The position numbers were made by a program, and so were the translations under genes. A stretch of DNA of 63,994 nt, the filler included, from Globobulimina sp. (Eukaryota), in the NCBI GenBank assembly GCA_003354225.1. It is 9 parts of 9 records of this genome, joined end to end, with 100 filler letters (N's around TTAATTAATTAA, not from the genome) between each part and the next. Parts side by side here need not be neighbours in the genome. Positions count along the whole stretch, not along the records: positions 57,169 to 63,994 come from PIVH01000231.1; 8 more parts are not named here. One strand, 5' to 3'. This document shows positions 57,069-63,994 of this stretch, piece after piece. Each line of letters begins with the position of its first letter. Positions within the stretch are counted from its first letter, which is position 1. The notes under the pieces were generated by a model. It had not been told where the DNA came from, made no database searches, and saw nothing but the letters and a program-made list of their open reading frames with translations.

Positions 57069-57168
57069 NNNNNNNNNNNNNNNNNNNNNNNNNNNNNNNN
57101 NNNNNNNNNNNNTTAATTAATTAANNNNNNNNNNNNNNNNNNNNNNNNNNNNNNNNNNNNNNNNNNNN
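57069..57168. other. artificial contig spacer
   Basis: 44 N + TTAATTAATTAA + 44 N. Confidence 0.99.
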
Positions 57169-57380
57169 GGTGAAATAAATCCGAATGAACAAAGTTGTCA
57201 GATGCTTTATTCTCCGAATCGATCCAATGATATTAAAAACATAGTTAATAATTTGGATCTCCTCCCTGTGTGTCCCCTGTGTGTTGTGAAGGTCTATTTA
57301 AATTGTAAAGTTTCTTTCAAATTAAATCATCGAACGTGTAAATAGCAAATGGTAGTTATATGTCAACCAACTTATATTGA

Positions 57381-58669
57381 TTAATTATTTGGGTTAAATA
57401 ATTGTTCACAAGTTTTGCCTTCCCAGAGATTATATGTTACTAAATTCTTACGACTCCTATCAATGGTCATTGAGCCTGGGCGATTTCTGCCATGAATCAT
57501 CTCAAAAGGTACTATCCGTAGGTCTTTAATCTTGAACATGATATAACGATTTTGTACGTGTGGTAAATTGTTAACAGACCAAACCACATATCGTAAAACC
57601 TTCAATAAATCAATTTTTTGTTGATGACATAAGGAAGTTGCTCCGATTCGTATACAATATGGTGGATATGCTTTCGGCTTTTTAATTTTTAAAACTTTCA
57701 CAAAATGTTTTAAAATTTCCGCCAATTTGGAAGGGCGCCATATTACTCCATTTAATCCTACAAAGACATAATTAAAGTGATTTGTATTCAAATTACAAAC
57801 TCGTTTAATTAATTTTTTCTTTCGTTTATTTTCTGATATTGATAATAGTTTTGAATTTAAATGGCGATGTATGACTCTTCGCCTGTTTAAAAGCACCATA
57901 TATATTGCATAGAAATCCAAGTACCGACAATGACAATTTTTTACGTTATGGCATATTGGCGGAGACATATAAATCCGCTTTGGTTCACCTCTAAACTCCT
58001 GGTTTTTATACCAATGAACCAAGATTTGTAAATATTGTCTGTGATATGGTTTGTTTAAGTTATGCTGTGAAATATCACCCCATCGTAAACCTGTGGTTAT
58101 ATTCTCCCAATCCGCATTTTCTGTACTGTCGGTATACAAAATCTCTGCGGGACGGCTTATAGTGAAAAAGCATATTAATAATAATAATGCTCTTGTCAAG
58201 GATTCCAATGGGGCAATTTGCCATGTTTCAGGGGTAATATTTATAAATTTTAAATAATCCACCAACCAATAAATCCGCATTGGTAATCGAATTTGTCTGG
58301 GTTTTTTATATAATTTCAACATGGTGGTATGGATTGTATCATAAAACCCATCTTCATAAAAATTAGGTTTCCCTCCACATGATTTGACCCACCAAGATAA
58401 GGCCGATGACCATGTTTTATGCGAATTGCACGATCCCAAACGTATACTACGATCATATTGCCAATATATTGCAAATGCAGGATTTATATTTGGTAAAAAT
58501 GGATTCTGTCCATGCTCGATATTGTAACCCCACCAATCCTTTAAAACTGACACATAATTTGTTTTTGTGGTGATTCTCCTGCTTCTGAATATATCTATTA
58601 AAATCCGTTTGGTAGTCGTCGGGTCATATTTTGCTACTTCACGATTCCAGAAGACTCGGCGTGTTATTC
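57381..58669 (-). CDS. tyrosine recombinase (YR) of the retrotransposon
   Basis: LLICFFTISRPAEIL (catalytic R), LRWGDI, WYKNQ (K), YCIRIGATSL (HxxR position), VVWS and NRYI (W, Y). The frame is open up to a candidate acceptor at 58670. Confidence 0.88.
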
Positions 58670-58806
58670 CTGAACAAATTTCATACTATTTTATATATAT
58701 TATAAGACGGAACGTGTAAAAGCGTTTTTGTTAAATAAACAGACACTGCTACAGTTTTTAAGTCAGTTCACTTCAAATCAATGTCAAGAAGGTGGTCGGC
58801 AGTTGG

Positions 58807-60542
58807 TTAGTTATATAGATTATGTAACAATCTCAGATTAGGATAATATTCCAATTTAGATTGATTTGCATTAATTTCCAAATCAAACATATCCACAATT
58901 CGATGAAATCTTGCCATCTCAAATCTGGATAAAGAATCAGCTAAACCGTTGAAATCAGATGGGATGAATTCTACTCGTAAATCAATACAATAAATACACA
59001 TTAAAAGTACAATTTCTTGTATATACTGCATCAATTTTGGGCTGCCTGCCCAACATTTATAGATACTGAAAAGCACAGATTTATTATCAATATATAATAA
59101 TAGTTTGCGCCCAGTTAAAATATCTCTATAATTGTATAATAGCATAATTACAGCATGAGCTTCTTGATAATTAATGGACATTGTTCGATGATTTATATTA
59201 TTTATATTTAATTTATTTAAGAAATGATAATTCGCAAAATGTGATCCTACGATAAAGCCACCACCTTCGTTACTTGCATCCGTTGCACCTGTTATTGTGA
59301 TTGATGGTTGATTTATGATTGAATGCATAGTAACGGTTTGCATATGCAATGTATATTGTAGCCAAAAACGTAAATCCTGAATTATAGGATCTGGAACCCA
59401 AAATATTTTATTTTTCATTCTTGGATTCTTACGGATTTTTTCATGAATCAAGCGAAGTAATCTGTAGCATAGGATTTTGGCTGATTTTCTGAATTGTGCC
59501 CAATGCATTATTTTGCCACAAATGGATTCTAATGCATGTCCTGATGCATATCGATGTAGTATTATTAGTTTTATTCCATGACATAATTGTTTATATTTAT
59601 GAGTCGGTATGTGTACATTTTTCAATTTTAAATTAAAACCAAAACCATGTACAACACCCTCAGTTATAGCCGTTTCATCCTTTGCATGAGAAACATTTAC
59701 TTTTAAATCATCACACATTTGATCAAATTTATGAGCCATTTCTTTTGCTTCTCTCTCTGAATGAGAGGCAATTAAGAAATCATCAATGTGTACTAAAAGT
59801 CGATCTTTCTTTAAGAAATGTAAATATTTATTCTCAAAAATCCAAATTAAAATCTGTGCAAAGTGTTGACAATTTGCGGCTGCTGACGCTAAGCCATATG
59901 CTTGGCGTAGATCACCAAAAGAAAGACCAAAAATGCAATATTGGATAAATTCACAATCATTTGAGGCTAATTTTAATTGTCTAAAAGCATCCTTTAAATC
60001 ACGTAACGAAACATATTCATATTTTATTAGGATTTCAATATATTTTCGGATATTTGGAAGTGTTGGGATTTTGCATTTTTCTTTCTCAATCAATTCGTTT
60101 ATGGATACTGTCCTCTGAGTGCTATATGAACCATGTCTGGCAACTCTGATTTCAGTCATTTGTTGTGTATCATTATTTCGTTTTGGTACACATAATAAAT
60201 TCAGATTATAATGGAAAGTCTTATGATTTGCAGTGATATAACTTTTCTTCGCTTCTTTTACTATCCGATTCAAAATTTCTTTCAATTCCTTTTTATTTCT
60301 AACAATATTTGATACATGTTTTGATAGTTTGGATGGGTCGCGATCTTTCAACCATAATGGATATCCATCCTCAATTAACACAATTTCTATGTCTCCATTT
60401 GGGTGATCGCTTAAATAGTCACGGAATAAATTGATATTAAAATGATGAGGGATTTCCGGCGGATTTATCCATAACTCTACCAATTCTTGGAGTAGATTGG
60501 CACAGTCATCATCAATATCGCGTAATTTTGGTAGTATTGTTT
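58807..60542 (-). CDS. reverse transcriptase + RNase H of the retrotransposon
   Basis: CVPKR, SLRDLKDAFRQL, QAYGLASAA, VHIDDFLI, LESICGKIMHW; RNase H ATDAS, INYQEAHAV, YIDNKSV, NGLADSLSR. The frame is open up to a candidate acceptor at 60543. Confidence 0.94.
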
Positions 60543-60795
60543 CTATATATTATTGGGTTTATATTATTGTATACGATTATAAATATAATTATTGATTATG
60601 AGTTATTTTTGTTGAGTGTAAATATGAGTCACCACGTTGACTCACTTTTACATAACGATTTTGAGTCAATAGGAACAGTTATTTGTTAGTTATTTGTTAA
60701 GTGTTTCTAACTTGATACAAACTAAACGCTTATGTTGGAAAAAATGAGTTAGATTTAATAAATCAAGGATTTTTATTTTAAAATTTAAATATATT

Positions 60796-63700
60796 TTACG
60801 AGAATATTTTCGGACAATTTGGGATGGTGTGATTTGCGTCACCACAAAGACAATCATGATATCGCTCAACACCGCCATTTCTGCATCTTGGTCCTCTTGA
60901 GACACAATTTTCATTTGGCATATGATATGCAGCACAATATCGTCCTGTTAATTTACGTCTAAAATCCTCTTTTAATTTAGGACGTGTAGTTATCATCCAA
61001 TCCTTGAATCGTTGTACTCTCCGTTCCTTTTGTTCTGATGTCAATCGACCACCATTTGATTGACTCCGACTCATTAATTTATTGGGAATGCGATCAGATA
61101 CATTTACATTTTGAAGCGACTCATTTTGCGTATTATTGTCGTTCCGCAAATGTTTCTGCGTTTTTATGAATTTTACATGGTCATAATCTCGGAACATCAG
61201 TTGTAACCACATAGGGTCAACATAACGCGATCCTTTTTTCTCAATTTCCAAATTTGATCTAAGATGTGAGTCTTGTATTGCTATCACAATTGACTTTGTT
61301 TGCCTCATTGCAGTCTCCATTGATTCATTGATAAATAAATAAAATAATTGTTCATTTAATTGAACATCAAAAATTAATGTATTTAATGCAAATTTCCATT
61401 GTTGCCAATCATTTATTGCAACATTTAACATTCGATTATATCTCGCAATTTCATCCAATGGTTTTATACGGATCGCTTTCTTTTTATAAAGCACTTTCAT
61501 TGAACGTAATAATTCCGATTCGTTGTTATTTACATATAATTGCCATACATTCAGAAGACGGAGGACTTCATCGCCAAATAGGAAGATATTTCTCTTTTGT
61601 GTAAATATCGTATTTATTGTTGTTGTGGGATTTGCTCGGACCAAATGAGTTGAGTCCTTCGCATTTTTTAAGACTGCCAACATGATATCAGTGAATTGTT
61701 TGGGTGAACATCGCCAAATAAACATCAAAACATCAGTCTCCGCATCGTATCGTTTATCTTTTGCGGATTTTTTGCCTTTCTTTTTCTTCTTCGGAGTTTC
61801 ATCACTGTCATCCGATTCTATTTAAATCACAACAACAAAAACAATCAAATTCATTCTAAGATTATGATATTTTGTGTTGACCGGTAAACAACATTCAATG
61901 CACGGTATCACATTTTATATTGTTACCTATTGGTCAGATACACAACTTTTTATATTTTTAATTTACATTTTTACGATTTCTGAGTGATAAATTGTGAAAT
62001 TTTATGTATCACTCTCATTGTGAAGATATGATGAAAAAAACGTTTCTGATTCAACGTCTTACAAACAATACAAAAACGTTTTATTACTCCAACTAAAAAC
62101 GTTTTCGTTCTGAAATCTACGAATTTACTCAAAGTCTGACCAAAGCCATACAGTTAGATTGTATACAAACTCATTCTATACACGGCTCACATGTAAAGGA
62201 GACAGATCCACAAACCTTGAATATTATCGACAATCGCTTTGTTGCTACCGCTATTCATCATATCTTGATATACATTTTGGTGATTTGACACTTGTTGTTG
62301 TTTATTTGTATATTTGCCAATTAATTGAAAACCAAGTGTGGTTTTATGGACATGATACTCTTTACTCCACCTTTCCATTCCTCGTTGTGTGTCTTTCAAC
62401 ATTTCATCCACGGACTGTTTCTGTGGTGATTTCTGATTTGACGAATTCGAGTCTTGTTTTGATTGCATTATACCAAATTGATTGGATAATGTGTTTATTG
62501 CTGGGATGATATCTTTGGCCCATTCTGGACACTTTGAAGGAACGCGATATTTCGAACTGTCCTTCTTATCATTCTCTATTTCATCATCATCATCGGAATA
62601 AATCTCAATTAAACGGCGTTTTTTCTTCGGAGGGATATAATCCAAATCATCCCATGGATCACGAATTCGTTTCTCTGAGTTCTCTGCTTTATCACCAATG
62701 AATTTTATTTTTCCTTTCTTTGTTTGATATAATTCGCTCGGAATCACATCCAAATCCTTATAATTTTTGATACGTTCACCAGCTTTGTTTATATATCCTT
62801 TCTTTTCAAGGAATATGTACTGTTTATAATATGTGTCCACAATAACATTTTTTGTTTCGTCTTCACTCAAATTCAATAAACGAATAAATTTCTCGGCTGC
62901 TGGTGGTAAATGATAATAAACCCGATAATTTACCAAAAATTGTGTCATCCGATGATTATACGCATTAAATTTGTGCTTGACATCTCCATATTTGATGGAA
63001 TCCTTTTTCTCAAATTGTCCGATGTTTTGAATCATTTCTTTTCTGTATTTAATTACTTTTTTAATTCGGGCTTTCCAATCAGATTCATATTCTTTTGATT
63101 TGTCAGCCTTTACGAAATTCGAATCTTTGAATTTCTTTATTCGTTTTTTAATTTGATTCACATCGTTTCCACGCTTATTCGCATCGACTTCATCCTTTCT
63201 CTCAATTTGTATTATATCATCTTCCACATTAAAGACACTGTCATTGTCCGATTCTTGTTCATGAACTGGAGTCGCTTCCCGATCGTTGTCATTGCTCTTA
63301 CCATCACTGTCCGAAGAGTCTGCGTCTCGACCTATCGCATGTTGTGGTGGTACGTCATTGGGAGGATTTGGAAAATCCCAGTTATCGACGTGCGCACCAA
63401 TATCAATTTCGTTATCACGTTTATCCCAATTCCTCTTCCTTCTGACCGATAATTCCTTATCGAACCATAAATCATTTGCTAATAAATCCACAATTTGATT
63501 ATGTTGAGGTTTCTCATGATCTTCATGGTCTTCCTCAAATTTCAATGCTTTTTCATATGCATCATTGAGGTCAATGAGTTCCCCTTTAACACCATTGGAA
63601 TTTCCATATGGATTTATCAATTTCTGTTTAACCATCGCAGCAATGGCCGCTATGGTTTCACTTGAAATGCCACCTCTTTTTGCTGCAGATTTAATCGGTT

Positions 63701-63803
63701 TTATTATTAAATAATGACCAAATTCTGCCTCTGGTGGGTATTGGAATTGATCATTTGGTACATGTGTACCATTGACATAAGTGTGATTTGGCTGGTCTGC
63801 CAT
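60796..63803 (-). CDS. gag-like ORF1, two predicted exons (63803..62216 and 61817..60796), 869 aa, with C-terminal Cys/His zinc fingers
   Basis: ATG at 63803. Phase-1 intron 61818..62215 (CAAG|GTTTGT...TTTAAATAG|AA) joins ORFs 62187..63836 and 60796..61728 in frame. C-terminus CAAYHMPNENCVSRGPRC..HDCLCGDANHTIPNC. Confidence 0.75.
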
Positions 63804-63994
63804 CTGACGCTGAGGACTGCTTTGGTTAGTTTGCAAGTTTGCTTTTTGTTTACGACGACGGTATTGATGACTAGAGTGCTTTTTGAGTTTAGGTAAAATC
63901 TAAATATCAAAAACACTTTTGAACACAACAATAGTTTGTTCTCTTCTGTCATATTCAATACCGGGATGATTTCTGTAAACCGAAATATCCACAA

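Follow-up and report, generated by a model that had tools for sequence, protein, structure and literature searches.

Possible alternative splicing of one 5' coding exon onto three reading frames in a tyrosine-recombinase retrotransposon from a Globobulimina assembly

How does a retrotransposon produce its enzymes when their reading frames neither overlap with those upstream nor open with a start codon? Retrotransposons normally lose introns, and their ratio of gag to pol is set by frameshifting, by readthrough or by overlapping open reading frames (ORFs). The question is raised by an element on the minus strand of a stretch of DNA of 63,994 nucleotides (nt) from Globobulimina sp. (assembly GCA_003354225.1), the whole of which we call the window. 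The element is a tyrosine-recombinase (YR) retrotransposon with four ORFs, all intact and mutually non-overlapping, in the order ORF1, ORF2, reverse transcriptase (RT)/RNase H and YR. A first-pass annotation had proposed that ORF1 supplies one leader exon with three acceptors downstream, and this is the best-supported model among those that we weighed, by virtue of conserved sites, conserved phases and diverged spacers. We assign a probability of roughly 65% to the reading in which a shared donor in ORF1 would be joined alternatively to three acceptors, in a YR retrotransposon that keeps its introns. The feature itself is real and the model well supported, as judged from sequence comparison, with the RT and YR junctions as predictions at the RNA level.

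One donor, three acceptors and the joined frames

Without splicing, ORF1 runs from an ATG at 63803 to a TGA at 62189-62187 and encodes 538 amino acids (aa). The predicted donor lies inside this frame, after nt 62216, and the exons that follow the three predicted acceptors begin at 61817 (ORF2), 60542 (RT) and 58669 (YR); when the coordinates are read directly from the sequence, the donor and the acceptors stand where they had been claimed to stand, all of them in phase 1. The joined frames, which we recomputed, measure 2610, 3324 and 2877 nt, equal to 870, 1108 and 959 codons when the stop is counted, and contain 0 internal stops; these are the lengths given earlier. The description of the ORFs as non-overlapping, and of the RT and YR frames as closed by stops a few codons before their AGs, also holds, the in-frame stops lying 2 codons upstream for RT and 5 for YR. 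If residues are numbered from the junction codon onward, the first methionine is residue 129 in the RT exon and residue 117 in the YR exon, and the earlier figure of 115-125 codons without an ATG is roughly right, though slightly low for RT.

Under the model of a shared ORF1 exon, one primary transcript would be used in several ways, and the genomic copies would keep spliceosomal introns. The unspliced RNA would yield ORF1 alone (538 aa) and would also serve as the template for reverse transcription, a role suggested by the retention of introns in the copies. Joining the donor at 62216|GT to acceptor 1 would produce an ORF1-ORF2 protein of 869 aa, gag-like and with a zinc-finger-like tail, whereas acceptor 2 would give an ORF1-RT/RNase H protein of 1107 aa and acceptor 3 an ORF1-YR protein of 958 aa. 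Each enzyme would then bear the same 529-residue N-terminal module, and this module may let all three proteins co-assemble on the element RNA or in a particle, a function that we infer, with no frameshift, readthrough or protease being involved.

Intron 1, which separates ORF1 from ORF2, is well supported by a conserved donor, by the ORF2 acceptors and by two proteins that are contiguous across the predicted junction. The sequence CAAG|GT follows a Gln codon, in phase 1, in 4/4 loci that hold the end of ORF1 (the window and the metagenomic relatives L001, L004 and L013), and the ORF2 acceptor is in phase 1 in the same loci, with a candidate in a further relative, L010. The database proteins P0111 (1175 aa) and P0121 run unbroken from the C-terminal motif of ORF1 into ORF2-like sequence at the predicted junction, and they back the earlier proposal that ORF1 and ORF2 are expressed as one spliced protein. 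Among the ORF1 homologues that cover the C terminus, 20 of 21 end in [QH]|G[KLMTI] plus a tail that is short and not conserved, and the 21st is P0121, which runs on into ORF2-like sequence; as we read these sequences, the tail is the footprint of a donor of the form G|GT[AT][AT]G that the gene caller has read through.

The start of intron 1 is itself conserved like coding sequence (window 62215-62100, L001:2091-2200, L004:1261-1360), with an identity between the window and L001 of 0.66 against 0.54 for shuffled sequence. It contains the blocks CATGTGAGYC..GTA and TGA-CTTTGG, it can be recognized in several ORF1 homologues by their G[KLMT]W-V-C tails, and RNAalifold on 3 sequences places it in a proposed stem with 5 covarying pairs. 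This block could be a cis element that is present in unspliced RNA only, and we regard it as a candidate packaging or splicing-control signal.

For the two enzymes, we infer the junctions 62216^60542 and 62216^58669 by elimination. The stretch before the first methionine is conserved family-wide in RT, and in the AlphaFold model of YR it forms helices of a Cre-like N-terminal domain, so both stretches must be translated, from a start that lies upstream. The window and L001 differ in how the frames of their ORFs relate to each other, which argues against readthrough or a fixed frameshift. We assign the ORF1 donor to RT and YR because no other conserved phase-1 donor was found: a conserved phase-1 GT is absent from the C-termini of ORF2 and RT, and within the window element the ORF1 donor is the only full (9/9) match to the family donor pattern. 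One run on the element (DNA-like contigs, of unknown kind) covers all 30 bins, and 0/10 of the joints listed coincide with a predicted junction; it reveals neither a spliced nor an intron-less form, a result that we count as neutral.

Other donor positions were considered and rejected. A donor across the ORF2 stop, as a link between gag and RT, would be in phase 2 and could not be joined in frame to the phase-1 acceptors, and at the C terminus of RT there is no conserved donor that could produce an RT-YR fusion. As a separate observation, ORF2 has a G at the end of its final sense codon, which creates GTAA across the stop, in 4/6 loci (window 60799-60796, L005, L006 and L013).

Splice sites among the relatives

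A metagenome scan returned 63 loci, of which L001-L015 are close to the window element (RT identity 32-71% in the best tblastn segment, GC content 31-62%), and no relatives were found in scans of viral contigs and of genome contigs. The set for the RT boundary comprises 13 loci (the window, L001, L003-L007, L009, L010 and L012-L015), among which L006 and L007 are near-identical; L002, L008 and L011 are cut before the boundary and were left out of the count. A phase-1 YAG (Y is a pyrimidine) stands where amino-acid conservation begins in 13/13 of these loci. It occupies the identical aligned codon, two residues before an I-L-P-K-type motif, in 11 of the 13, and it lies a few codons further in for L010 and L012. 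At the YR boundary, a phase-1 YAG is found 36-37 codons before a conserved [GT]TK motif in 10/10 loci.

Selection on the protein cannot explain these AGs, because the A of each boundary AG falls on the third base of a non-conserved codon; at the RT boundary this codon is Ile, Thr, Leu, Ser or Pro, and the GC content of the genomes is 31-62%. When the sequences are stacked on the AG, it is the only dinucleotide that is fully conserved, stops occur upstream of it, and the mean pairwise amino-acid identity is 0.086 upstream vs 0.219 downstream for RT and 0.075 vs 0.129 for YR. As a background, phase-1 AG is found at 519/9020 codon boundaries of these ORFs (5.8%) and phase-1 YAG at 233 (2.6%), and the presence of the AG at the homologous boundary of every relative that includes it exceeds chance. 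A codon-column alignment of the 7 full-length RT ORFs, used as a background control only, has a phase-1 AG in all sequences at 0/580 aligned columns elsewhere.

The spacers between the ORFs behave differently from the exons. Between the window and L001, the identity of the exons is 0.63-0.71 against about 0.55 for shuffled sequence, whereas the spacer between ORF2 and RT shows 0.56 against 0.54 shuffled and the spacer between RT and YR 0.37 against 0.38 shuffled. The first-pass annotation had suggested that other copies be compared to see whether the GT, the AGs and their phases are conserved while the gaps diverge; we ran this comparison on the metagenome relatives, and it came out in favor of the model. 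In this family, 5' and 3' splice sites are thus both conserved and phase-compatible, as is characteristic of retroelements expressed by splicing.

More distant loci from the same scan (L016-L050, on soil-type metagenome contigs) are YR retroelements with 21-27% RT identity and a classical layout, and they form a useful outgroup. In 13 of the 16 distant loci listed, the 3' end of the RT ORF is overlapped by another ORF, and in 6-8 gag and pol share one frame with a single stop between them. The downstream ORFs that were scanned match PF00589 in 5/5 cases at E <= 1.2e-3, one of them above the cut-off. Since the distant relatives have gag and pol separated by one stop and overlapping pol and YR, the split, non-overlapping layout of the window element is derived.

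Weighing the explanations

Several results weigh against the splicing of ORF1 onto the two enzymes. No fused ORF1-RT or ORF1-YR protein occurs among the 88 RT matches, the proteins longer than 1015 aa or the 22 YR matches. The implied introns to RT and YR are long (1673 and 3546 nt), and the window acceptors of these two exons have weak pyrimidine tracts, with Y = 0.43 vs 0.45 overall. The host, to judge from uninterrupted ORFs of 1781 and 2378 aa on other window contigs of AT-rich DNA, looks like an AT-rich eukaryote that is intron-poor. MAFFT does not place the boundary AGs in one column, as the non-homologous upstream extensions misalign, and the loci had to be anchored on conserved motifs to obtain the positional count. 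All introns of L004 are in phase 1, two additional ones among them; a shared phase therefore says less about which donor is used, and RT and YR of this lineage could also be fed by a second donor, inside ORF2. A methionine codon directly follows the acceptor-split codon in a few relatives, for RT at L006:775 (also in L007) and L013:2264 and for YR at L004:5265 and L009:2286, and these relatives might initiate translation independently. In-frame ATGs in other copies had been named in the first-pass annotation as grounds for rejecting the model; they do occur right after the acceptor in these relatives. In most members, more than 100 conserved codons go by without an ATG.

Two observations accompany these points. 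The extra introns of L004 were recognized by eye and are short, at 64 nt (L004:1098-1161, in ORF1) and 61 nt (L004:2020-2080, in ORF2). The methionine right after the acceptor is distributed over three separate lineages, which is above the expectation from a methionine frequency of about 2%.

The RT and YR acceptors may be real and yet be joined to another upstream exon, so that the enzymes would lack the ORF1 module; the partner may be a short leader exon with an ATG, located past the window end, or a lineage-specific donor, as in ORF2 of L004. The 5' end of the element is missing, the acceptors are conserved while their partner is deduced, L004 has its extra phase-1 donor inside ORF2, and the fused proteins have not been found, all of which would fit such an arrangement. 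We nevertheless consider it unlikely, since the ORF1 donor is the only one conserved in all lineages examined, in the required phase, and the 190 nt of leader in the window contain, by eye, no comparable arrangement of an ATG and a phase-1 GT. Lower still is the probability that only intron 1 is spliced, with RT and YR produced by reinitiation, internal entry, non-AUG initiation or transcripts that start in the spacers. This would leave unexplained the phase-1 YAG at the start of conservation (13/13 and 10/10), with its A in a synonymous position, and it would have to accommodate the long conserved stretches without an ATG in most members and spacers that hold no conserved sequence fit for a promoter or an entry site, even though the ORFs are separate and each intact, a few relatives have a methionine right after the boundary and the pyrimidine tracts at the window acceptors are weak.

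There is, lastly, the explanation by decay, in which the element is an inactive copy and the GT/AG pattern a coincidence of AT-rich sequence. The element lies on an unplaced, collapsed-looking contig and L001 has a frameshift in ORF1, but the four window ORFs are intact, and the pattern recurs in relatives with 30-72% RT identity, where chance would provide it at 2.6-5.8% per site; the comparative data already contradict this explanation, and we consider it very improbable. Joining of the ORF1 donor to all three acceptors is thus the reading that we retain for the window element. Its extension to a whole clade of YR elements from environmental eukaryotes is more tentative, and we place it a little short of even odds. 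In this extension, alternative splicing of a retrovirus-like kind, with one donor and three acceptors, would replace frameshifting, readthrough and proteolysis altogether, and the block at the start of the intron would mark intron-containing RNA as the template to be copied, in the manner of a retroviral packaging signal.

Encoded proteins, known systems and genomic context

The identification of the RT/RNase H and the tyrosine recombinase in the first-pass annotation is upheld by Pfam, by homologues and by the Foldseek comparison with Cre. The RT exon matches RVT_1 at E 1e-6 (29.0 bits, just below the cut-off of 29.6; about 60084-59668) and RT_RNaseH at E 0.011 (RNase H-like match at about 59193-59023), and RT and RNase H are the only domains of the RT ORF (580 aa). 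It has 88 homologues of 19-72% identity, many with precomputed PF00078 and PF17917, and their alignment contains the invariant DD and the RNase H-type D/E/D columns. The YR ORF has no Pfam match, including PF00589. Its AlphaFold model, built with 21 homologues as input, has a predicted local distance difference test score (pLDDT) of 82 and a Cre-like two-domain fold, and Foldseek returns Cre as the best match (1ma7_B, E 4.1e-7, 380 columns), followed by XerH, Tn1549 Int and lambda Int. Columns of catalytic type, namely R173, the R of the Y-x-x-R box, W364, H371 and Y376, show complete or almost complete conservation, and the YR profile has a weak match to an integrase in the PDB (E 0.12). In none of the four ORFs did Pfam give a family of aspartic protease or DDE integrase at E <= 0.1, and the Pfam scan of the four ORFs found no methyltransferase domain. 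The characteristics of the DIRS order are therefore present, namely a retroviral-type RT with RNase H, a tyrosine recombinase in place of a DDE integrase, and neither an aspartic protease nor a DDE integrase.

Within this order, the element is similar to Ngaro in its sequence of gag-like ORF, RT/RNase H and YR, and in having no methyltransferase, protease or DDE integrase; the accessible parts of PMC8547959 and PMC3783388 give the three-ORF description and the domain list of Ngaro, respectively. In described Ngaro elements, the YR ORF overlaps the RT ORF, shares its frame or is frameshifted relative to it (available portions of PMC3783388 and PMC6681497), whereas non-conserved spacers lie between the ORFs of the window element, an intron divides its gag and its downstream ORFs all begin at phase-1 acceptors that are conserved. 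The Ngaros of Cafeteria, like our outgroup loci, match PF00589, and the YR of the element does not. Ngaro elements are defined by split direct repeats, A1-[ORFs]-B1A2B2; the ends of the window element are cut, and its likeness to Ngaro lies in the ORFs. DIRS-1 of Dictyostelium and the DIRS1-like elements also combine RT/RNase H with YR and have no integrase or protease, and DIRS1 has inverted terminal repeats and an internal complementary region. The portions of PMC6681497 and PMC3783388 that could be consulted describe DIRS1-like elements as having YR and RT ORFs that overlap extensively and, in many cases, a methyltransferase domain, whereas the window element has neither the overlap nor the domain.

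Outside the order, foamy viruses are similar in that they make their polymerase from a dedicated spliced mRNA and not by frameshift or readthrough. Foamy virus Pol is a separate precursor and not a Gag fusion (PMC3196705, in its accessible part), whereas the donor in the window element lies inside a coding exon and is phase-matched, so that the enzymes would be N-terminal ORF1 fusions. BARE and the Arabidopsis Ty1/copia elements are long terminal repeat retrotransposons that keep splice sites and have spliced and unspliced pools of RNA for different uses; in the available portions of PMC3735527 and PMC5580714, splicing or subgenomic RNA mainly raises the output of Gag from a single gag-pol ORF. 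The window element, in contrast, would graft one exon onto three downstream ORFs, and it carries YR and not an integrase. In the early region of polyomaviruses, the T antigens share an N-terminal exon, with one 5' coding exon joined to alternative acceptors, and proteins with a common N-terminal domain are the result, as we propose here. Polyomaviruses are, however, DNA viruses; their T antigens have a short stretch in common and act as regulators, whereas the proteins at issue here include a polymerase and a recombinase.

No account of native introns or of splicing in DIRS, Ngaro or VIPER elements turned up in our literature search; supplements and subscription reviews lay outside its coverage, and an earlier description is possible. 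The accessible parts of the papers on these elements (PMC8547959, PMC3783388, PMC6681497 and PMC7192593) describe overlapping, frameshifted or in-frame ORFs and do not mention native splicing, and the only intron in that part of PMC7192593 is an artificial marker. As far as these partial sources show, the splicing strategy would be new for tyrosine-recombinase retrotransposons. If true, it would add a new expression logic to the DIRS order, in which introns are kept and one coding exon is placed onto three ORFs; it would mean that the selective use of unspliced RNA as a template arose outside retroviruses too; and it would explain how an element without a protease delivers its enzymes to its own RNA. 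Because gene callers split such elements into ORFs that seemingly have no start codons, the family is likely mis-annotated in protist and metagenome data.

The two proteins encoded upstream are less readily classified. ORF1 has 34 homologues (P0089 aligns over 2-536), and its model contains two confident domains, at residues ~10-150 and ~215-370. ORF1 has no Pfam match above the cut-off and no protein-atlas match, and Foldseek gives no match to the fold at E <= 0.001 in a search that barely covers the N-terminal domain; the best VIA Z, 5.2 to a helical bundle, is within the range of noise. The designation of ORF1 as "gag" rests on its position only. ORF2 begins with an acidic and Lys-rich stretch, has a helical middle part and ends in a conserved Cys/His-rich, zinc-finger-like C terminus, and its Pfam scan gave no match. 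A further database protein, P0140 (430 aa), is a chimera in which the N-terminal half of ORF2 is fused in frame to the C-terminal recombinase half, with a joint that is not at the splice sites, and its source is probably an internally deleted, non-autonomous copy.

The window consists of unplaced contigs of about 7 kilobases (kb), mutually unlinked and chained by N44-TTAATTAATTAA-N44 linkers that carry stops in six frames. Between 7084 and 57168 the contigs follow each other in decreasing size, from ~7.08 to ~7.0 kb, and apparent neighbours are unlinked. The coordinates of the first-pass annotation, which we read and recomputed, stand, but the context needed correction: the element is alone on one short contig, without true genomic neighbours. 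This contig breaks off at 57169 and, on the other side, at the end of the window (63994), and the termini of the element are therefore missing. No terminal or long repeats are found inside the window element, L001, L004 or L005, all of which lack full ends. Elsewhere in the window, on contigs other than this one, are ordinary eukaryotic genes (BEACH, USP, RhoGEF-PH, sulfatase and kinase). The features of the element are listed in Table 1.

Table 1. Coordinates in the window of the element and of its observed and predicted features
Feature	Position	Strand	Remarks
Part of the element present in the window	57169..63994	-	one short contig, both ends cut; linker 57069-57168; window end 63994
5' leader, partial	63804..63994	-	includes an upstream ORF
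Exon 1, proposed shared N-terminal exon	62216..63803	-	first 529 codons + 1 base of ORF1
Shared 5' splice donor GT, predicted	62214..62215	-	CAAG|GTTTGT, phase 1, after conserved Gln codon
Intron 1 (398 nt), predicted	61818..62215	-	first ~100 nt conserved like coding sequence
Acceptor 1 (tAG), predicted, phase 1, opens the ORF2 exon	61818..61819	-	same in L001, L004, L013; candidate in L010
ORF2 exon	60796..61817	-	open frame 61821-60796; stop TAA 60798-60796
Spacer from ORF2 stop to RT acceptor, non-conserved	60545..60795	-	identity at shuffled level vs L001
Acceptor 2 (tAG), predicted, phase 1, opens the RT/RNase H exon	60543..60544	-	conserved in relatives
RT/RNase H exon	58807..60542	-	578 codons + stop; open frame 60549-58807
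Spacer from RT stop to YR acceptor, non-conserved	58672..58806	-	identity at shuffled level vs L001
Acceptor 3 (cAG), predicted, phase 1, opens the tyrosine-recombinase exon	58670..58671	-	CAG 58672-58670; conserved in relatives
Tyrosine-recombinase exon	57381..58669	-	429 codons + stop; open frame 58685-57381
3' untranslated part, cut by contig end	57169..57380	-	

Two minor features of the contig complete the description. A direct repeat of 22 nt with 77% identity (57321-57342 and 58699-58720) has the core TTTACACGTTC on the element strand; one of its sites is in the 3' untranslated part and the other just upstream of the YR acceptor, an arrangement that may be due to chance. In the leader, an upstream ORF on the minus strand (63952-63707, 82 codons including the stop) lies in another frame than ORF1 and overlaps its start at 63803.

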